A stretch of 16,519 nt of DNA from Promethearchaeia archaeon (lineage in GTDB: Archaea; Asgardarchaeota; Lokiarchaeia; Sigyniarchaeales; SOKP01): the NCBI GenBank assembly GCA_029856125.1, contig JAHQWJ010000132.1, forward strand, positions 1 through 16,519. The letters run 5' to 3'. Made by a program: the position numbers and the translations under genes. A model generated the notes under the pieces. That model saw only the letters and a list, made by a program, of their open reading frames with translations. It ran no database searches and was not told where the DNA came from. Below are positions 650 through 11,691 of the stretch, piece after piece (the stretch's first letter is position 1; every line of letters starts with the position of its first letter).

Positions 650-1591
650 TTGTCTGATAAAAATGAATTTGACTTAGTAATTATTGGTGGTGGACCTGCG
701 GGATTAACCGCTGCAATTTATGGGGGACGAATGGGTTTAACGACTGCTCTTTATGAAGGTACAGGGTTTGGAGGCCTAGCTGGGACAGCTCCAAAAATTG
801 AAAATTATCCCGGATTTGAGAGTATCCACGGTCTTGAATTAACGGAAAAAATGAGGGAACAAGCGGGTAAATGGGGAGCTACCTTTTTTTATGAAAAAGT
901 ATCAGCAATTAATCCAAAGGAAATGACTGTAACTACATCTGCAGGTGATATAAAAGCGAAAGCTATCATAATTGCTACTGGTTCGAAACACCTAACACTT
1001 GGATTGCCCAATGAATTTGATTTAATAGGTAATGGAATATCTTATTGTGCTACTTGCGATGGGCCTTTATTTCGAGATCAAGTAGTTGCTACAGTTGGTG
1101 GTAGTAATGCTGCTGGTCTAGAAGTAATTTATCTTTCAGGTGTAGCAGAAAAAGTTTATCTTATTCATAGACGGCACTGTATGCGAGCAGAAGCATGTAT
1201 TGCAGATGAGGTTGATTCATTACCCAATGTTGTACCAATGTATAATTCTATTATTGAAGAAGCTATACCTAAAGACAACAGATTAGGAGAACTAAAAATT
1301 AAAAATATTGAAACTGGCGAAATAACTAATATAAATGTAAATGCTCTATTTATTGCTATAGGAGTTGAGCCACAGACCGAAATAGCAAAAAAAGTTGGCA
1401 TAGAAATTGATGATGATAAATTTATTAAAGTCAATAAGAAACAAGAAACCAATTTTCCGGGGATATATGCAGCAGGAGATGTAACCGGTGGAATACGACA
1501 GGTAACCACAGCAGTTGGTGAAGCAACAACAGCAGCGATGAATGCATATCTATTTATTAAAAAAGGATGGTATGGAGAAGGAGCGAGTTAA
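650..1591 (+). CDS. trxB: Thioredoxin reductase (low-Mr FAD-dependent disulfide reductase)
   Basis: GGGPAGLTAA FAD motif, IENYPG, IIATG, redox CATC, HRRxxxR, GIYAAGD. TTG start preceded by GGAG at 639-642. Confidence 0.93.
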   Translation: MSDKNEFDLVIIGGGPAGLTAAIYGGRMGLTTALYEGTGFGGLAGTAPKIENYPGFESIHGLELTEKMREQAGKWGATFFYEKVSAINPKEMTVTTSAGDIKAKAIIIATGSKHLTLGLPNEFDLIGNGISYCATCDGPLFRDQVVATVGGSNAAGLEVIYLSGVAEKVYLIHRRHCMRAEACIADEVDSLPNVVPMYNSIIEEAIPKDNRLGELKIKNIETGEITNINVNALFIAIGVEPQTEIAKKVGIEIDDDKFIKVNKKQETNFPGIYAAGDVTGGIRQVTTAVGEATTAAMNAYLFIKKGWYGEGAS

Positions 1592-1631
1592 TAAACAAAA
1601 TAAGGCTTTTTCTAAAATATATCCGAATATT

Positions 1632-1681
1632 AAATGTCATCTAGATATTACACCGTATTATGTAATATCACGATGTCATTT
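1632..1681. repeat. 21-8-21 bp inverted repeat; candidate tyrosine-recombinase core (dif-like) site or xerA operator
   Basis: AAATGTCATCTAGATATTACA-CCGTATTA-TGTAATATCACGATGTCATTT. The arms are complementary at 18/21 positions and the inner 9 bp are perfect. It ends 8 bp before the xerA ATG. The repeat is seen directly; its function is inferred. Confidence 0.65.
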
Positions 1682-1689
1682 CTTTTATA

Positions 1690-2616
1690 ATGGTAGACTA
1701 TAAGGTTTCAGACTTTATCGATGATTTTCTAATTTCAAAAGAAGTAGAAGAGGGATGTGCGCCATCAACTATTAAAGCGTATCGATACGATCTTGAAAAG
1801 CTTATTAGTCTTGTTGGTGATTTGAGTCTTGAGTCGCCAATGCTTAGGCAACGGATTAGGCTCTTTTTAAAACATCTTAAAGATTTAAATTATTCAAAAA
1901 AAGGGATCAGCAGAAAAATCGCCTCTTTGAGGTCTTACTTTAAGTTTTTAACTTTAAATGAATTTATTACTAAAAATCCAATGGCAACGATTAAATCTCC
2001 TAAAATTAAGATAGAGGAGAGTTTACCAAAATTTCTTAATGTTGAAGATATTGAGCTAATTTTTAACAAGTTGAAGGATAAAAAACTATTTTACTCCAGG
2101 AAGAGCCAGAGGTATTATTTAATTGTAAGATTACTTTATTCTACTATGGCTCGTGTCAGTGAGTTGTGCGACATCCAAATCAAAGATATTGATTTTAACA
2201 AAGGGTACATAAGATTAAAAGGAAAAGGAAGTAAAGAGAGGATTGTTCCGGTTGATTATCATACTTTAGAACTTTTCACAGAGTATCTAGAAAATCGAAT
2301 ATCTTATAGCTCCGAAGACTATCTTTTAGTCAATACGCGATTCCAAAAATTAAATCCCAGAGTAATCCAGGCAGATGTTAAAACGATTAAAGAGAAGTGC
2401 GGTTTCCCAGATTCAAAAATTATAACGCCTCATATTTTCAGACACACGGGCGCTACTCACCTAAGGCGTTCTGGAATGGATATCAGTGAATTGCAGGATA
2501 TACTCGGGCATAGCTCTCCAAATACTACAAGAATCTATGCAAAGAACGATATTACTAAACTAAGACAGTCTTACTCGGAAATGCATCCTTTAAACAAGAG
2601 CGATTTAAATCTATAA
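1690..2616 (+). CDS. xerA: XerC/D-like tyrosine recombinase (archaeal XerA type)
   Basis: N-terminal SAM-like domain (STIKAYRYDL, SRKIASLRSYFKFL, KNPM). Complete catalytic set: R (MARVSEL), K (KGKGSKER), HxxR (PHIFRH), LGH, Y (TTRIYA). Xer-type C-terminal helix LRQSYSEMHP. 308 aa with no arm-binding domain. Confidence 0.88.
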   Translation: MVDYKVSDFIDDFLISKEVEEGCAPSTIKAYRYDLEKLISLVGDLSLESPMLRQRIRLFLKHLKDLNYSKKGISRKIASLRSYFKFLTLNEFITKNPMATIKSPKIKIEESLPKFLNVEDIELIFNKLKDKKLFYSRKSQRYYLIVRLLYSTMARVSELCDIQIKDIDFNKGYIRLKGKGSKERIVPVDYHTLELFTEYLENRISYSSEDYLLVNTRFQKLNPRVIQADVKTIKEKCGFPDSKIITPHIFRHTGATHLRRSGMDISELQDILGHSSPNTTRIYAKNDITKLRQSYSEMHPLNKSDLNL

Positions 2617-2620
2617 TTGT

Positions 2621-2738
2621 AAGTTTAAAATTAATTACTTATATATCATTATAGAGGATACTTCTAATAATCCTCTAGAAAAAGTCAAAAGTATAAGAAA
2701 GTTTAAACTTAATTTGTTATATAATTACTTATATATCA
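2621..2738 (+). promoter_or_regulatory. Repeat-structured AT-rich region upstream of cdc6 (tandem TATA-containing repeats; candidate origin/promoter)
   Basis: TAATTACTTATATATCA occurs exactly twice (2632-2648, 2722-2738). AAGTTTAAA(A/C)TTAATT occurs twice (2621-2636, 2699-2714). Inverted repeat TAGAGGAT-N10-ATCCTCTA at 2652-2677. Confidence 0.55.
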
Positions 2739-2767
2739 CGAAAATTATAAATAAAAGTCGGTTAATC

Positions 2768-3958
2768 ATGGACGAGGAAGAATTTAGAAAGCATTTCATG
2801 ACAAAATCAGTGTTTAATCAAGCTAACTCACTTGACATGAGCTATGTTCCCGAAAAACTATATTGTCGCAACGAGGCAATTAATAACCTTATCTATAACT
2901 TTAGACGGATTCTTGAAGAAGAAGAACAACCGTCCGTAAACTGTTTAATTTTAGGTAAAGGTGGAATTGGAAAAACTTGTACGACAAGATATTTTGGTAG
3001 AAACTTTAAAACAATAGCGCTAGAAAAGGATGTAGATGTTTTTATTGAGTACTACAACTGCATAAATTTCCGCTCCAAAAGCAAAATAATTCGCGAATTG
3101 TTAGCAAAGTACACTCATGGAAGTGGACGGGGATTCTCGGACGACGAAGCTTTGAAGCTTATTTTAAAGCAATTAATCCGAGAAAAAGGATACATGCTAC
3201 TAATAATAGACGAAGTCCATTTATTAAGATCTGACGAAATTTTAGCATTTTTAGATATTGCTGAAACCTATGGACACCAAAACGCAAAACTCTCAATAAT
3301 TTTAATCTCCAGAAATAAAGATTGGATGACAGTAGAAACTGAACGGATTTTAAGTAGATTAAACGAGAAAATTAAACTTAAGCCTTATGATTACGAAGAA
3401 TCAAAACAAATTTTGGAATATAGAAGCGAGCTTGCCTTTAAAGAATACGTAATTGACGACGATATTCTAAATATGGTTAGTCAGATCGTTGCAGATCACG
3501 AAAATATGCGTCACGGAATAGAAATCTTGAGAAAGAGTGGATTATATGCCGACCGGGAAAATTTAGATAGCGTAAGTGCTGACATAATTAGAGCTGCATC
3601 TAATGACGTTTACCCCACATTTAGAGGAGAGATCGTAGACCAGTTAAACGATCAAGAACTATTTGCTCTCTTTGGAATTGCGCGATCATTGATAAATAAA
3701 GACGAGCCATTTACTCTAGTTGATGACGCTTTTGAAGAGTATCAGATCATAAGCGAGACATACTCAGTAGAACCACATGTGAAAATGAGTTTTCGAAAAT
3801 ATATCCGGACACTTAACCAATTAAAAATTATCGCATCTAAAACAGTCAGAATCGAAGAAGCAGAAAGAGGTAGACACCTCGAAATTACACTATTAGATAT
3901 ACCCGCCTTGAAATTGGAAGAGTTTTTAATCGAGATTTTTAACAAGAAATTTAGCTAA
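2768..3958 (+). CDS. cdc6: Orc1/Cdc6 family replication initiator (AAA+ ATPase plus winged helix)
   Basis: L.MSYVPEKL..R N-terminal motif, Walker A GKGGIGKT, YYNC, Walker B LIIDEVH, arginine finger SRL, KPY..E...IL..R, C-terminal winged helix ending RGR. ATG 2768 (MDEEEF) is preferred over TTG 2714, which lies inside the repeat/TATA region. Confidence 0.93.
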   Translation: MDEEEFRKHFMTKSVFNQANSLDMSYVPEKLYCRNEAINNLIYNFRRILEEEEQPSVNCLILGKGGIGKTCTTRYFGRNFKTIALEKDVDVFIEYYNCINFRSKSKIIRELLAKYTHGSGRGFSDDEALKLILKQLIREKGYMLLIIDEVHLLRSDEILAFLDIAETYGHQNAKLSIILISRNKDWMTVETERILSRLNEKIKLKPYDYEESKQILEYRSELAFKEYVIDDDILNMVSQIVADHENMRHGIEILRKSGLYADRENLDSVSADIIRAASNDVYPTFRGEIVDQLNDQELFALFGIARSLINKDEPFTLVDDAFEEYQIISETYSVEPHVKMSFRKYIRTLNQLKIIASKTVRIEEAERGRHLEITLLDIPALKLEEFLIEIFNKKFS

Positions 3959-3962
3959 TAAC

Positions 3963-3979
3963 TTTTTTAACTTCTTTTT
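3963..3979 (+). terminator. Oligo-T archaeal terminator after cdc6
   Basis: TTTTTTAACTTCTTTTT begins 5 nt after the stop codon. Confidence 0.5.
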
Positions 3980-4101
3980 AACAAATTTATACTTAAAAGT
4001 CAATTTTAGTTATGGGCATAAGAAGATATTAAACAAGTAATTAATTCCATATCTTAAGGGATATTTTTAACCGTTTTAGTTTGTTTTAGTTTAATTCTCA
4101 C

Positions 4102-4262
4102 ATGGTAAAAAAGAAAATTTTATTAAGGGAGCTTCAGGCACCGTTGGTAAAGAAGTCTTTAAAGAATTGTTAAGCCGGACTAATAAATACGAAGTTAGCT
4201 TATTTTTGCGAGGGTCTCCTAAGAACAAAAAGCTTATCAAACCTTATCCTAGTATTAAATGA
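4102..4262 (+). pseudogene. Frameshifted, truncated N-terminal fragment of an NAD(P)-dependent epimerase/dehydratase (extended SDR)
   Basis: ATG GTA AAA AAG AAA ATT TTA TTA, then AG (one base missing), then GGA GCT TCA GGC ACC GTT GGT. This reads MVKKKILL-[T]-GASGTVGKEVFKELLSRTNKYEVSLFLR..PSIK*, the Rossmann TGASGxVG beta-alpha-beta unit. It stops after about 53 codons. Confidence 0.75.
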
Positions 4263-4341
4263 TAAGAAAAATCCGATGTTTTGAGAAGAATTTAAACTAA
4301 ACTAAAAGGATGACACACTGGTTAATATAACTTGTATTTAA

Positions 4342-4572
4342 TCAGTAATTTTTTTTTTCATCCTTACTTTTACTATACCAATCGAGCCATTCTTTTCGAC
4401 GGTTTTTTGCTTTTGTTACTTCATCTGCGTCCGATCCGCGTTCATCCCGTATGTTACTCCAATAGTGATCTAATTCGTAGCGAGATAACGACAATCCGCA
4501 CGAACCACATACCATAAGACGATTGTCGGGATTGTATTTCATTTTACCGGCGCATTCAGGGCAACGAGCCAT
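4342..4572 (-). CDS. Small Zn-ribbon protein (CPEC..CGSC) with charged Trp-rich C-terminal helix; function unknown
   Basis: 76 aa with two CxxC knuckles in a TFIIB-type zinc-ribbon arrangement and a tail RRKEWLDWYSK. AT-rich TATA-like sequence lies directly upstream. Confidence 0.8.
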   Translation of the reverse strand: MARCPECAGKMKYNPDNRLMVCGSCGLSLSRYELDHYWSNIRDERGSDADEVTKAKNRRKEWLDWYSKSKDEKKNY

Positions 4573-4726
4573 AATTTTTTCTTAAATATTATAATTTTTC
4601 TTATCTCTAATTATTGTAGAATTATACACAATTAAAATAATTTCTGCTTGGTAAATAAACTCTAAATTTATTTCTAATGATGTATTACCTAATATTATTT
4701 TACAATTAACTCAATAACTATTTTTA

Positions 4727-6107: not shown

Positions 6108-7841
6108 ATGATGAAGCCACTTTTAACTTTAGATGAAGTAAGAGATGCCTTGATTGGAAGGTATTTTACATTTCAAACTCCTTATGGAATGCGCTTGCTC
6201 ACATATGCAGATTACACGGCCTCTGGGAGATCACTCAAATTTATTGAAAAGTATTTAATAAAGATTCAAAGGGAATATGCCAATACTCATACTGAAGACG
6301 ATGTAACTGGTCGCCATATGACTAACCTTCTACATCAAGCAGAAAAATTAATAAAAAAAGCTTTTAATGCCGAATCTAACTGTAGAATTATCGCAATCGG
6401 TACAGGTGCGACAGGCGCTATAACCAAATTCCAAGAGATCATAGGTATCCGATTACCACCGGCAACAAAAAAATTATTACAGCAGTTAATGGATAAATCT
6501 TCAGAAGAAAAGGTTTTAGATCCAGCTCTAAGAAAAATCTATGATAAAGAGATCAACCGATTAAAGCCTGTCGTTTTTATTGGTCCTTACGAACATCATT
6601 CTAACGACATTATGTGGCGGGAAGCTATTGCGGAAGTAGTAGCTATACAACTCAATCCTGAAGGATACATTGATTTAGAAGATTTAGAAAACCAAGTTTC
6701 AGACCCGATATATAACGATAGGTTAAAAATAGGCTCTTTTTCAGCAGCATCAAACATCACAGGAATTAAAACACCCGTCTACCAAATTGCTCGTATTATG
6801 CATAGATATGGAGGGTTAGCATGTTTTGATTACGCTGCGAGTGCTCCATATGTAAAAATCAATATGAATAAAGACTCTGAAACCTTTTTAGATGCAATTT
6901 TTATATCACCTCATAAATTCGTGGGAGGGCCAGGATCATCGGGAATTTTAGTATTCAACGAAAGAATTTACGATCTTGCTCTCCCACCAACCACTGCTGG
7001 AGGAGGAACTGTTGATTTTGTAAGCGAAACTATAATCGATTATTCAAACGACATAGAAGTTAGGGAAAGAGCGGGTACTCCCGGAGTATTGCAAACCATT
7101 AAAGCAGCTTTAGCCATAGATTTAAAAGATGCTCTTGGAATTGACACTATAGCTTCTAAAGAAAAAGAATACATAAATAGTGCTTTGGAGAGATTATCGA
7201 AGCATCCAAATATCGAAATTCTAGGTCCTCACGAACGAAAAAACCGTTTAGCTATTGTTTCATTTACGATAAAACATGGAGATAAAAAGTTACACCCTAA
7301 ATTTATTACTAAACTTCTTAACGATTTATTTGGAATTCAAAGTCGAGCCGGTTGTATGTGTGCAGGACCCTATGGGCACTGCTTACTTCAAATAAGCGAA
7401 GAAAAATCACAACAATACAGCAAATTTAGTCAACAAGGAAATTTTAGTTTCAAACCTGGTTGGTGTCGCGTTAATTTCCATTATTTATTTTCAGAAGTAG
7501 AATTTCAATTCGTTTGCCAGTCGATAGAATTTATAGCAGATTATGGGTATCTCTTTTTAAAGGATTATTCTTTAAACATTAATACCGGAGAATGGGTCCA
7601 CATTAATTTCAAAGACACTTACTTATTCAATAAGCCAGATATTAAGACGGTATTATCAACAAATTTACAAAACTGTTTTGATGAAGAAACTATTGATCAG
7701 AAAAAAGAATTCGCTAAATGTCTAAAGTACGCTAAGGATTTAGTTCTTAATATTGGACAGGAAGAAGGATATCTTCAATTTGAGGATTCTGAGGTCGAAA
7801 AACTAAGATGGTTTAATTTTTCCCATACATCTGAAGATTGA
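6108..7841 (+). CDS. Aminotransferase class V-fold PLP enzyme (cysteine desulfurase/selenocysteine lyase-like, long form)
   Basis: YADYTASGR, YANTHT, GPYEHHSN..W, FSAASNITG, DYAA, PLP lysine in SPHKF.GGPG, GGGTV, E.AGTP, QSRAGCMCAGPYGH, KPGW.R.NFHY. Confidence 0.88.
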   Translation: MMKPLLTLDEVRDALIGRYFTFQTPYGMRLLTYADYTASGRSLKFIEKYLIKIQREYANTHTEDDVTGRHMTNLLHQAEKLIKKAFNAESNCRIIAIGTGATGAITKFQEIIGIRLPPATKKLLQQLMDKSSEEKVLDPALRKIYDKEINRLKPVVFIGPYEHHSNDIMWREAIAEVVAIQLNPEGYIDLEDLENQVSDPIYNDRLKIGSFSAASNITGIKTPVYQIARIMHRYGGLACFDYAASAPYVKINMNKDSETFLDAIFISPHKFVGGPGSSGILVFNERIYDLALPPTTAGGGTVDFVSETIIDYSNDIEVRERAGTPGVLQTIKAALAIDLKDALGIDTIASKEKEYINSALERLSKHPNIEILGPHERKNRLAIVSFTIKHGDKKLHPKFITKLLNDLFGIQSRAGCMCAGPYGHCLLQISEEKSQQYSKFSQQGNFSFKPGWCRVNFHYLFSEVEFQFVCQSIEFIADYGYLFLKDYSLNINTGEWVHINFKDTYLFNKPDIKTVLSTNLQNCFDEETIDQKKEFAKCLKYAKDLVLNIGQEEGYLQFEDSEVEKLRWFNFSHTSED

Positions 7842-7889: not shown

Positions 7890-9230
7890 TTAAGAGGATA
7901 CATTCAAATTATTAAACGCCATATAAGGATAGAGAGTATTTTCAATAAATTCTCGTTCTTTAGAAATATATACGCAATTTTTCACCATTTCAAGAACGTT
8001 ACCACTAACATTTCCAAGTTTAATTGGATTTTTGAGCTCACCATTTTTAATGTAATAGCCATTTCTTATTTCGGCTCCAAAATTACCCGAGACATCATCT
8101 GGATTTAACCAAGAAAACTTGTCGATGTAATAACCTTCCTTAATATCCGATATCATATCATCAAAAGATATGTCTCCCGGGAGAATCTTAAAATTGCTTA
8201 TCCAATTAACAACCGTGCCGCTTTCTGCCCTTTTTGCGTTTCCCGTTGATTGTTTCTCTTCTAACATTGCGTACTTTTGATCATATAATCTATTCTGAAA
8301 AACACCATTCTTTATAACTTCTGTTAACTGATGAGGATTTCCTTCGGAATCCCATGAATTAGAACTCAGACCACCTTCTAACAATCCATCATCAATAATA
8401 GTGATGTTTTCGCTTGCTACTACATCCCCTAAGTTGAAACGTGAAATTTTTTCAGCATGAGCTTTACCAAGTGCGTGAGTTCCAATGACGGGATTTATAG
8501 CTTGTTGTAAAACGCTTGGAGAAAAAATTACAAGGGCATTATCAGAAGGTTTAGGTTCTACTGCTCTAAGCGTATCCTTAGCTCGCCTAGCCCAACTTGA
8601 CACTCTCTCGTTTAAACTTAGGTGCTCTCTTTCTTTGTAATACCCTGCATCCCAGAACTCCGATAATTTACCATTTTCTTGCGCCTTTAAAGAAAATTCC
8701 ATAAAAAAGTAAGTCTTTCTCGCGTCTAACTTTAAATCATTGCTGTTTCTCAAAAAACGATGATTGCTATGTATCCTAAATCGCAAGAATGTAGGTACTA
8801 CATCTTTTTGTTGATTCACTTCAGAGATGAGAACTTCTGCTAATTCTTTCTTGATCGTTAGAGGATCGCTTAATATTCTTTTATCGGCCGTATTGATAGG
8901 GGAAATATTTACTTTTAAAGGAAAATCGTACTTAGAACTTGAATTAATTTTTGATAGTTGAACACATGTATCGATGTTTTTCTCGATTTGGCTAGACTCA
9001 AGTGAATTCCCTTTAACTACGCCTATACCAGTTTTATTTTCCTTTTGAGTAAGAATTCTTAGAAAATATTCAAAATCACTTATCTCGCGCTCATTCTCAG
9101 TCTTATCCTTTAAAAAAATAGATTCAAAAATACGCTTCTCGACAAAGAATATCTCAAATTCTTGGATATTTTTCGATTTTAAAACAGCTTCGATTCTATC
9201 TAACTTTTCAACTGACACTTCTTCATTCAC
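7890..9230 (-). CDS. pmbA: PmbA/TldE family protein (non-catalytic subunit of the TldDE protease)
   Basis: ITIIDDG....G..S..WDSEG.P, IKNGV....LYD, STGNA.R, NPDDVSGNF, GYYIKNGE...P; no HExxxH. Its start overlaps the tldD stop at 9227-9230. Confidence 0.88.
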   Translation of the reverse strand: MNEEVSVEKLDRIEAVLKSKNIQEFEIFFVEKRIFESIFLKDKTENEREISDFEYFLRILTQKENKTGIGVVKGNSLESSQIEKNIDTCVQLSKINSSSKYDFPLKVNISPINTADKRILSDPLTIKKELAEVLISEVNQQKDVVPTFLRFRIHSNHRFLRNSNDLKLDARKTYFFMEFSLKAQENGKLSEFWDAGYYKEREHLSLNERVSSWARRAKDTLRAVEPKPSDNALVIFSPSVLQQAINPVIGTHALGKAHAEKISRFNLGDVVASENITIIDDGLLEGGLSSNSWDSEGNPHQLTEVIKNGVFQNRLYDQKYAMLEEKQSTGNAKRAESGTVVNWISNFKILPGDISFDDMISDIKEGYYIDKFSWLNPDDVSGNFGAEIRNGYYIKNGELKNPIKLGNVSGNVLEMVKNCVYISKEREFIENTLYPYMAFNNLNVSS

Positions 9231-10767: not shown

Positions 10768-11691
10768 TTACACAGATTCTATATCTCGAGATATCTTATC
10801 ATCTGTTGTTTTTTCTAAGTACTCTGAATTTTCTTCTATGTTTGTTAATCTTCTTTCTAGTATGCTCATTGTCTCGATTATGTTATTAATTGTAGTTTGA
10901 ATTTGCTTTACGCCATTCTGAAGTTCACCTATTTGATTTAAGATGAAAGAATTGACATCAGATTTTTTGACTGGCTCAACCAACCAAGAAAAGAGATTAT
11001 GTAAAAACTTCTGATTGTCTAGGGTATTAATACCGATATTATCATCGCTACAAAAAATGTCTATATCGCCTAAAGCAATTACCTTTCCCTGCCCGAATTT
11101 AGCATAAGCTGCTATGACATGCTGTTGCTCCTTATCTTTTTCCCATTCTTCTGATGAATTGTTGTAGATTTCTGACCAATTATTCAATTTATTGGTTTCG
11201 AGGAGAGCTCTAGCTCCCTTTTTTAAGTATAAAGAGCAGGTTCCACCAATTACTACTTCTCTTAATCCATTTAAAAAGTCAGTTTCTGGAAATTCGTGAA
11301 TGTGTAAGATGCTTGAACAATTTTGGTTTTTAGGGTTTTGTTCTTTTATGAGATTCTTCTCAAATAAAAAACCAAAATGATTAGTAATATCATTAAGATT
11401 TGTTTTTTGAAGGTAATCAGCTCCATACTCGCTAACAAGCAGTAAACTCCCTCCTAATCTAACGAAATTAACGATTTCTTTAATCTCGATGTTTGAGAAA
11501 TAATCGTCAATTGGATTACCTAATACTAGTACGTCTACATTTTCTAATACTTTTTTGGTTAAATCCTTATTTTCGTTTTTTTCAACCTTAAAATTTAGAT
11601 TATGGAGAAGTTTTAAAAAGTCGGTATAATCTTTGTCGAGCGTCAGCATTTCGTTATGAACAAGATCGAATAGAATTATTCTTCTCTGCAT
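10768..11691 (-). CDS. GIFT (GldG/IFT52)/DUF4350-like domain protein with C-terminal coiled coil
   Basis: ILFD..HNE, L..VDVLVLGNP, FS..EI..I..FV..GGSLLL..EYG, TNLN.I...FG, GQGKVIALGD.DIF, DNQKF..NLFSWL, followed by about 6 heptads. No signal peptide or TM helix is visible. Confidence 0.75.
   Translation of the reverse strand: MQRRIILFDLVHNEMLTLDKDYTDFLKLLHNLNFKVEKNENKDLTKKVLENVDVLVLGNPIDDYFSNIEIKEIVNFVRLGGSLLLVSEYGADYLQKTNLNDITNHFGFLFEKNLIKEQNPKNQNCSSILHIHEFPETDFLNGLREVVIGGTCSLYLKKGARALLETNKLNNWSEIYNNSSEEWEKDKEQQHVIAAYAKFGQGKVIALGDIDIFCSDDNIGINTLDNQKFLHNLFSWLVEPVKKSDVNSFILNQIGELQNGVKQIQTTINNIIETMSILERRLTNIEENSEYLEKTTDDKISRDIESV

Follow-up and report, generated by a model that had tools for sequence, protein, structure and literature searches.

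An archaeal xerA gene with a candidate target site beside a divergent orc1/cdc6 paralog in Lokiarchaeia: a probable module for dimer resolution, as opposed to a start-and-resolve cassette

Modules in which a Xer recombinase is encoded together with its site, comprising xerA/dif as well as the xer-site modules of XerS and XerH, have been reviewed (PMC5357621). As regards archaea, one source (PMC2958812) describes predicted dif sites near xerA in the Sulfolobales and dif sites that do not lie beside xerA in the Thermococcales, and another (PMC11840125) places, for haloarchaea, a dif-like site ahead of the xerA operon and calls TAA-N6-8-TTA the most conserved feature of archaeal dif. The locus considered here belongs to a Promethearchaeia archaeon (Lokiarchaeia, Sigyniarchaeales) and lies in what we refer to as the window, namely, the entire 16,519-bp contig (C132; JAHQWJ010000132.1) of a 3.69-Mb, 153-contig metagenome-assembled genome (MAG) that is 99% complete, with 6% contamination and 32.7% GC. 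In this locus, a palindromic element, which we call Site A, is followed by the Xer-type recombinase gene xerA and by an orc1/cdc6 gene, the two genes lying head to tail with an intergenic gap of 151 bp. A first-pass annotation of the same DNA had listed an inverted repeat, xerA, repeats, cdc6, and a decayed gene fragment, all of which are present where it had placed them, and its spacing of about 150 bp between the two genes agrees with the measured gap. It had gone on to propose a cassette coupling replication initiation to dimer resolution. We consider instead that the locus is probably a dimer-resolution module rather than such a start-and-resolve cassette, and that the module is best filed as an Asgard case of the known arrangement of a Xer gene plus an adjacent site. 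More specifically, we hold it slightly more probable than the contrary that the locus is a vertically inherited stretch of chromosome, neither an origin nor a captured replicon, in which XerA and its site form a dimer-resolution module beside a Cdc6 paralog that is not an origin initiator.

By its sequence, the product of xerA is an archaeal XerA, vertically inherited, with dimer resolution at a dif site as its predicted function. It contains the Phage_integrase domain (PF00589, 4.1e-39) and the SAM-like N-domain (PF02899, 1.3e-10), and with the NCBIfam XerA equivalog NF040815 (cut-off, 220) it reaches 238.7 bits. The catalytic residues R-K-H-R-H-Y, held in the motifs ARVSEL, GKGSKER, HIFRH, LGHS, and RIY, are aligned with and identical to those of Pyrococcus abyssi XerA (4a8e), which is also the best match among solved structures (121.8 bits), and of Escherichia coli XerD (1a0p). 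With the catalytic set complete, the recombinase is catalytically intact, as the first-pass annotation had stated. Furthermore, a single Xer-type gene was detected in the genome, and relatives likewise have one per genome.

Site A is composed of two 21-nucleotide (nt) arms (1632-1652 and 1661-1681), complementary at 18/21 positions, around a spacer of 8 nt, and as single-stranded DNA it folds with -10.9 kcal/mol (z = -5.0 with respect to dinucleotide shuffles). It is kept in 18 distinct sequences of the genus, in which the DNA upstream of it is not alignable. Two heptamers are invariant, ATATTAC (1645-1651) and GTAATAT (1662-1668); they are separated by ten bases, so that their centres lie 17 bp from each other, the arm spacing of the 11-6-11 core of tyrosine recombinases, and the arm complementarity is 9/11 both when the core is drawn as 11-6-11 (1643-1670) and when it is drawn as 11-8-11 (1642-1671). 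On the right side, TATTATG, CGAT, and the adjoining bases are invariant as well, and the four bases beside the left heptamer are free. The element occurs once in the genome. An exact pattern spanning both heptamers, run against GTDB contigs representing one genome per species, found 51 stretches, namely, 45 Promethearchaeota-type MAG contigs with one exact match each and 6 scattered chance matches in bacteria. In all of the archaeal loci that reach xerA (44/44), the end of Site A is 19 to 23 nt, nearly always 21 nt, from the xerA start codon, and cdc6 follows xerA in 36 of them, the others being cut by the end of the locus (six) or exceptions (two). In the window, this distance is 21 nt, and part of the right arm falls where a leaderless transcript would be expected to have its TATA box. 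The recombinase-core-like inverted repeat noticed in the first-pass annotation is genome-unique, strongly conserved, and arranged with recombinase-core geometry. We read Site A as a candidate dif-type target of XerA and/or operator of xerA; the dif-like reading is plausible and is strengthened by the conservation, yet the site would be non-canonical. A loose form of the palindrome, ATATTAY-N10-RTAATAT with one mismatch, matched five sister-order genomes at about the control rate and was uninformative.

Two relatives carry more than one copy of the module or of the site. In bin22 (G001), two whole site-xerA-cdc6 modules, about 74 to 80% identical to that of the window, occur on contigs C42 and C221 (JAGXNU010000138.1 and JAGXNU010000032.1), probably reflecting a mixture of two species. 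In L202 (JAHLWP010000007.1), the trxB-like gene is tandemly duplicated along with Site A (6556-6580 and 7938-7962), and in the upstream copy of the site both heptamers are degenerate, with the decayed start of a xerA gene after it; if two direct sites were active, the gene between them would be deleted.

Compared with archaeal dif, Site A is likewise a single-copy imperfect inverted repeat with 6 to 8 bp between the arms, located upstream of xerA as in the Sulfolobales and haloarchaea; moreover, in closed relatives, xerA lies about 114 to 149 degrees from origin markers, close to the range of 122 to 142 degrees reported for the Thermococcales dif sites. Different from archaeal dif, Site A is conserved at arm positions 3 to 9 and not at the inner ends, does not contain TAA-N6-8-TTA, and overlaps a promoter, its distance to the start codon being fixed at 21 nt. 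With XerS/difSL of streptococci and lactococci and XerH/difH of epsilon-proteobacteria, the locus shares a single Xer recombinase with a candidate target beside its own gene and a site deviating from the classic 11-6-11 consensus, but the protein here is an archaeal XerA, the sequence of the site is unrelated, and recombination at Site A is a prediction. We know of no FtsK partner in archaea, which is a further difference from the XerS and XerH systems. Across the genome, there are 22 repeats of the 11-(6-8)-11 type with TAA-N6-8-TTA; five of the seven examined lie within coding frames, and the rest look like low-complexity sequence. The best intergenic one, at C60:4380, was rejected as dif, being not conserved in 30 genomes of the genus, and two matches with three mismatches, found near cdc6 in relatives, fall inside the coding frame of an epimerase.

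The Orc1/Cdc6 protein of the window presents AAA+, Cdc6 lid, and winged-helix domains (PF22703, PF13401, and PF09079), scores 206.8 bits against TIGR02928 (cut-off, 181.3), and has intact Walker A (GKGGIGKT) and Walker B (IIDEVH) motifs; its relatives align on the ATG at 2768, the mechanically listed TTG at 2714 not being the conserved start. The genome contains at least three Orc1/Cdc6 genes, located in the window, on contig C63, and on contig C84. The C63 copy is of the canonical Cdc6-1 type (304 bits with Saccharolobus solfataricus Cdc6-1 and 288 bits with Aeropyrum pernix ORC1), the best structure match of the C84 copy is 1fnn (176 bits), and the protein of the window is more divergent, with weak and ambiguous structure matches (1fnn, 82.8 bits; 2qby_A, 62 bits). 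Orthologs of the window type, with 31 to 43% identity, occur in 101 of the 151 Asgard genomes sampled, mostly as a single match above threshold; within the genus, the identity is 74 to 92%, and the conservation is about equal to that of Cdc6-1. By these comparisons, the window protein is neither the canonical Cdc6-1 nor the C84 type but one of at least three ancient paralogs, as opposed to a late or mobile acquisition, and we infer a non-initiator role for it. A comparable case may be Orc1-2 of the Sulfolobales, which is reported (PMC12490963) to be a regulator of the DNA damage response. As in that case, an intact paralog lacks a recognisable origin beside it and other paralogs are found near the origin; the likeness is one of arrangement.

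Two neighbours of the window-type cdc6 gene can be mentioned here. A zinc-ribbon protein of 67 to 76 amino acids (aa) is encoded beside it in two families (identity, 39 to 48%), immediately upstream and co-oriented in the sister family f2 (L027-L033) and downstream in the opposite orientation in the genus of the window, and it may be a functional partner of this type of Cdc6. Also in f2, a gene for a eukaryote-like Ser/Thr protein kinase is convergent with cdc6, 13 to 20 bp from its stop codon (L027:429-1457, L032:2715-3710, and L030:2712-4142).

The spacer between xerA and cdc6 contains identical 17-mers at 2632 and 2722 and, after the xerA stop codon, an 8-10-8 hairpin (2652-2677). Its two halves form a tandem duplication of about 78 nt (copies at about 2613-2690 and 2693-2762), with a score reached by 1 of 1,000 mononucleotide shuffles. 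Both the duplication and the 17-mers are confined to the window and its two closest relatives (G007 and G010), the other members of the genus having unrelated sequence at the first copy. Family-wide, the spacer measures 111 to 214 bp and contains a single conserved block, AGAAA-n-TTTAAAC-TTAA, about 60 nt before the cdc6 ATG, represented in the window by the near-unique promoter-like block 2693-2712 (ATAAGAAAGTTTAAACTTAA). This block looks like a B recognition element (BRE) plus TATA box, that is, like the own promoter of cdc6, duplicated in the window species. Since the 17-mers fall within a recent promoter duplication, they do not represent an array of origin recognition boxes (ORBs); of the direct-repeat/inverted-repeat array described in the first-pass annotation, the repeats themselves are there, but their origin-type character gives way to a lineage-specific promoter duplication without ORBs. 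The conserved block can also be read as part of a weak 11-6-11 repeat, Site B (2686-2713), with TAA-N6-TTA and with arms complementary at 8/11 positions in the window. The TAA-N6-TTA signature is present in 24 of 36 related genomes, and in several species the left arm is lost, with TAA replaced by TGG and an arm complementarity of 3-5/11.

With regard to replication origins, no ORB or mini-ORB resembling TTCCAGTGGAAA within two mismatches was found in 1600-4700, no AT-rich unwinding element bracketed by inverted repeats was found at the locus, and the intergenic repeats are not conserved among relatives beyond the two genomes sharing the 17-mers. On contig C84 of the same genome, in contrast, two inverted 23-nt ORB-like boxes, ACTCCTATTTTTCCAyTGsAAAA (21/23 identical; dyad TTCCAnTGGAAA), surround a spacer of 13.6% GC at 77.61-77.79 kb (77610-77790), some 15 kb away from two cdc6-like genes in tandem, an arrangement with the canonical, textbook architecture of an origin. 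The mini-ORB scan of the genome was weakly specific, with 30 matches at one mismatch or fewer, and it supports the C84 pair; beside Cdc6-1 on C63, a single good box was found.

The skew was studied in two closed genomes of the sister family, G032 (4.36 Mb) and G038 (4.32 Mb), of which 20 kb per 72 to 73 kb was sampled (28%). Raw GC skew and gene-strand bias in G038 were dominated by the direction of transcription and were replaced by a strand-corrected measure, the third-codon-position skew of plus-strand genes minus that of minus-strand genes. In G032, this gave a clear signal for both T-A and G-C, with a cumulative minimum at 0.51-0.58 Mb and a maximum at 2.41-2.63 Mb (0 of 5,000 permutations reached the observed range); the C84-type cdc6 lies at 0.71 Mb, Cdc6-1 at 0.90 Mb, the window-type cdc6 at 2.228 Mb, and xerA at 2.287 Mb. 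In G038, the signal was clear for T-A only, with the minimum at about 0.07 Mb and the maximum at about 2.38 Mb (permutation p = 0.009), the corresponding positions being 0.165, 0.0003, 2.632, and 2.535 Mb. Hence the distance between xerA and the window-type cdc6 is 58 to 96 kb, both genes lie 0.1 to 0.35 Mb from the terminus-type switch (xerA, 0.12 to 0.34 Mb), and no origin-type (minus-to-plus) switch occurs at the window-type cdc6 in the sampled sequence. The skew analysis proposed in the first-pass annotation therefore detects, in this sister family, a nearby terminus-type maximum and not a switch of the origin type at cdc6. Both genomes look single-origin, with one origin-like minimum, situated near Cdc6-1 and the C84-type gene, and with xerA and the window-type paralog terminus-proximal. 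The ORB-box pattern matched these genomes solely with two mismatches, at about the control rate, and was set aside. Together with the lineage-specific repeats, the lack of ORBs in 1600-4700, and the ORB pair on C84, the skew does not sustain the earlier suggestion of a chromosomal hub in which resolution would sit next to an origin.

In other Asgard families represented by closed genomes, the window-type paralog is found 30 to 120 kb from Cdc6-1, and in one such family a XerA-like gene lies about 175 degrees from Cdc6-1. Because the paralog is near Cdc6-1 in those families, its position in the Lokiarchaeial order suggests a relocation towards xerA.

The surroundings of the pair are stable, and nearly all members of the genus have both genes between these conserved flanks. 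In 20 loci of the genus, the genes follow the order pyruvate-formate-lyase-like, trxB, xerA, cdc6, a three-gene block, zinc ribbon, DUF362, and the TldD pair. The three-gene block is intact in most relatives (e.g., L042:6623-9321, from G011) and deleted in the window species; the decayed fragment corresponds to residues 8 to 54 of the 339-aa NAD-dependent epimerase that follows cdc6 in relatives (72% identity), so that the past rearrangement proposed in the first-pass annotation can be specified as a local deletion of this block. The head-to-tail pair is also present in genera g12 and g16 of the family and in at least one g13 genome, and in genus g14 xerA and cdc6 are convergent, with gene ends 13 to 16 bp apart; when synteny is compared as the first-pass annotation advised, the xerA-cdc6 adjacency proves to be conserved across the whole family. 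XerA and Cdc6 trees of 32 genomes have 18 of 29 splits in common (Robinson-Foulds distance 22/58, against 57.4 with shuffled labels), the GC content across the locus (0.30 to 0.35, against 0.327 for the genome) is ordinary, and no flanking direct (att-type) repeats were found around the pair.

As side observations, the three-gene block encodes an NAD-dependent epimerase/3-beta-hydroxysteroid dehydrogenase (3-beta-HSD)-like protein, a DUF1295 protein, and a 3-oxo-5-alpha-steroid 4-dehydrogenase-like protein, and steroid-type enzymes in an Asgard archaeon may merit attention. In two relatives, the usual place of cdc6 after xerA is taken by another open reading frame (ORF), one of 454 aa with a weak Phage_integrase domain (L215:4370-5734; CAYPFJ010000002.1) and one unannotated, of at least 352 aa (L207); these ORFs may be insertions at the locus.

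Taken as a dimer-resolution module, the locus would work as follows. Two XerA monomers would bind Site A, which would serve as the dif-type crossover site of the chromosome, and XerA would resolve dimers there. Binding would also repress xerA, since the right arm coincides with the TATA position predicted for a leaderless xerA transcript. The Cdc6 paralog, having its own promoter and no origin elements alongside, would fulfil a non-initiator role. We infer XerA binding, recombination at Site A, and autoregulation of xerA from sequence, and the module so conceived would parallel XerS/difSL, XerH/difH, and the dif sites near xerA in the Sulfolobales and haloarchaea.

Several results weigh against this reading. 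The published dif signature TAA-N6-8-TTA (PMC11840125) is absent across 1600-1700, Site A having TTAC-N10-GTAA instead; its conservation is asymmetric, the right half being the stronger; and its 21-bp arms show no compensatory covariation, the observed score being reached by 180 of 500 shuffles. Owing to this asymmetry and the missing covariation, a pure promoter/operator role of Site A fits equally well. In addition, no such site is detectable ahead of xerA in the sister family f2 or in genus g14, where a profile search gave non-significant matches (E = 1.5 to 9), though at the expected place. The terminus placement, for its part, rests on the sister family, with 28% of the sequence sampled at 72- to 73-kb steps. 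Divergent Orc1/Cdc6 paralogs can recognise non-canonical origin boxes, and the lack of canonical ORBs is therefore compatible with a weak or dormant origin. The first group of results leads to the alternative in which Site A is no more than the promoter of xerA, containing a palindromic operator for XerA or another regulator, the true dif lies elsewhere, and the adjacency of cdc6 is functionally meaningless. The fixed 21 nt to the ATG, which brings the right arm to where a leaderless transcript would have its TATA box, speaks for it, as do the asymmetry (the right half and the adjoining TATTA invariant, the four bases beside the left arm free), the lack of TAA-N6-8-TTA, and the Thermococcales, in which dif is not beside xerA (PMC2958812). 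We nevertheless think it unlikely, although it deserves serious attention, given that the geometry matches a recombinase core site, that both heptamers are invariant across proteins at about 70% identity, which in our judgment exceeds the expectation for a promoter, and that no other conserved dif candidate emerged among the 22 TAA/TTA repeats (seven examined). Far less probable is that Site B, between xerA and cdc6, is the real dif and Site A is regulatory: Site B offers the canonical TAA-N6-TTA, retained in two-thirds of the related genomes (24/36), with 8/11 complementary arms, and has almost no other match in the genome. Against it, conservation does not extend to the left arm (TAA to TGG, complementarity falling to 3-5/11), the conserved AGAAA-n-TTTAAAC can be taken for a BRE with a TATA box some 60 nt ahead of the cdc6 start codon, and the window species has the block in duplicate, an arrangement that would be unstable if both direct copies were active sites.

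In archaea, origins are usually found next to an orc1/cdc6 gene, and the same DNA might house a secondary, non-canonical origin beside cdc6, either within the spacer or within the 380 bp that follow the gene; initiation and resolution would then share a hub. Besides this general tendency, the intact ATPase motifs and winged helix of the paralog, the palindrome AAGTTTAAACTT within the conserved upstream block, and the maintenance of the pairing with xerA across the family are in its favour. We regard it as quite improbable in view of the lack of ORB-like boxes and of a bracketed AT-rich unwinding element, the lineage specificity of the spacer repeats, and the skew of G032 and G038, neither of which shows an origin-type switch where the ortholog lies; moreover, the region after cdc6 is a decayed gene here and an intact gene in relatives, and in g14 cdc6 is inverted relative to xerA, with 13 to 16 bp between the gene ends. 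Captured elements, reportedly proposed by Robinson and Bell in 2007 as a source of extra archaeal origins, would instead make the pair a domesticated replicon core (att site, integrase, origin, and initiator) left by a plasmid or virus that had integrated. In the model known from Sulfolobus oriC3/WhiP, origins are gained by capture of extrachromosomal elements, and our locus resembles that model in the adjacency of a recombinase gene and an initiator-family gene, but it shows none of the features of an integrated element. Local rearrangements, such as the three-gene deletion, the additional integrase gene that one relative has behind xerA, and the g14 inversion, would suit a domesticated replicon, which was also the second proposal of the first-pass annotation. 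Stable synteny and agreeing gene trees make a captured replicon unlikely, and we judge this explanation to be highly implausible, considering also that the recombinase is the sole XerA of the genome and exceeds the equivalog cut-off, that the cdc6 type is widespread (101/151 Asgard genomes, mostly as a single match above threshold), that flanking direct repeats were not found, that housekeeping flanks are conserved across the genus, and that the composition is ordinary. One further idea, to which we give little credence, is that, in one family, the paralog moved off an origin-proximal initiator cluster, to which its orthologs still belong in several other Asgard lineages, and became fixed beside the xerA/site module in the terminus-proximal part of the chromosome, and that its pairing with xerA and the zinc-ribbon protein could be functional, acting at the end of replication. 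If so, the paralog could, for example, mark a dormant back-up origin at the terminus or, alternatively, link XerA-mediated resolution to termination or to a checkpoint in organisms without FtsK.

The features of the locus are collected in the table below. No Rfam matches and no tRNA genes were found in the window, in which the contig continues after the DUF362 gene with housekeeping genes. On its minus strand, 10768-11691 encodes a protein of 307 aa with a match to the IFT52 GIFT domain (PF23355, 1.5e-10).

Features of the xerA-cdc6 locus in the window, with the evidence for each
Feature	Position	Strand	Evidence
Thioredoxin-reductase-type flavoprotein gene, conserved upstream flank of the module	650..1591	+	Domain match, synteny
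Site A, palindromic 21-8-21 inverted repeat (11-6-11 core, 1643-1670); candidate XerA target and/or operator	1632..1681		Repeat search, fold, conservation
xerA, sole Xer-type tyrosine recombinase gene of the genome	1690..2616	+	Domain and equivalog models, structure alignment
xerA-cdc6 spacer with hairpin, tandem duplication, and promoter-like block	2617..2767	+	Repeat search, alignments of relatives
orc1/cdc6 paralog	2768..3958	+	Domain and equivalog models, motifs
Decayed N-terminal remnant of NAD-dependent epimerase/3-beta-HSD-like gene	4107..4247	+	Match to the gene of relatives
Small zinc-ribbon protein gene (76 aa)	4342..4572	-	Linked to window-type cdc6 in two families

Among known prokaryotes, Asgard archaea are most closely related to eukaryotes, and our literature search found no experimental mapping of their replication origins, termini, or dimer-resolution sites. 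The reading of the locus as a dimer-resolution module provides a candidate XerA target site for one Lokiarchaeial family, together with a rival candidate 1 kb away, and the two closed genomes add evidence for a single dominant origin and for a position of xerA near the terminus. It is worth stressing that the xerA-cdc6 pair should not be taken for an origin and that possession of three Orc1/Cdc6 paralogs does not mean that these genomes have three origins. Finally, the strand-corrected third-codon-position skew shows a clean single-origin pattern that raw GC skew hides, and it may help with other Asgard genomes.

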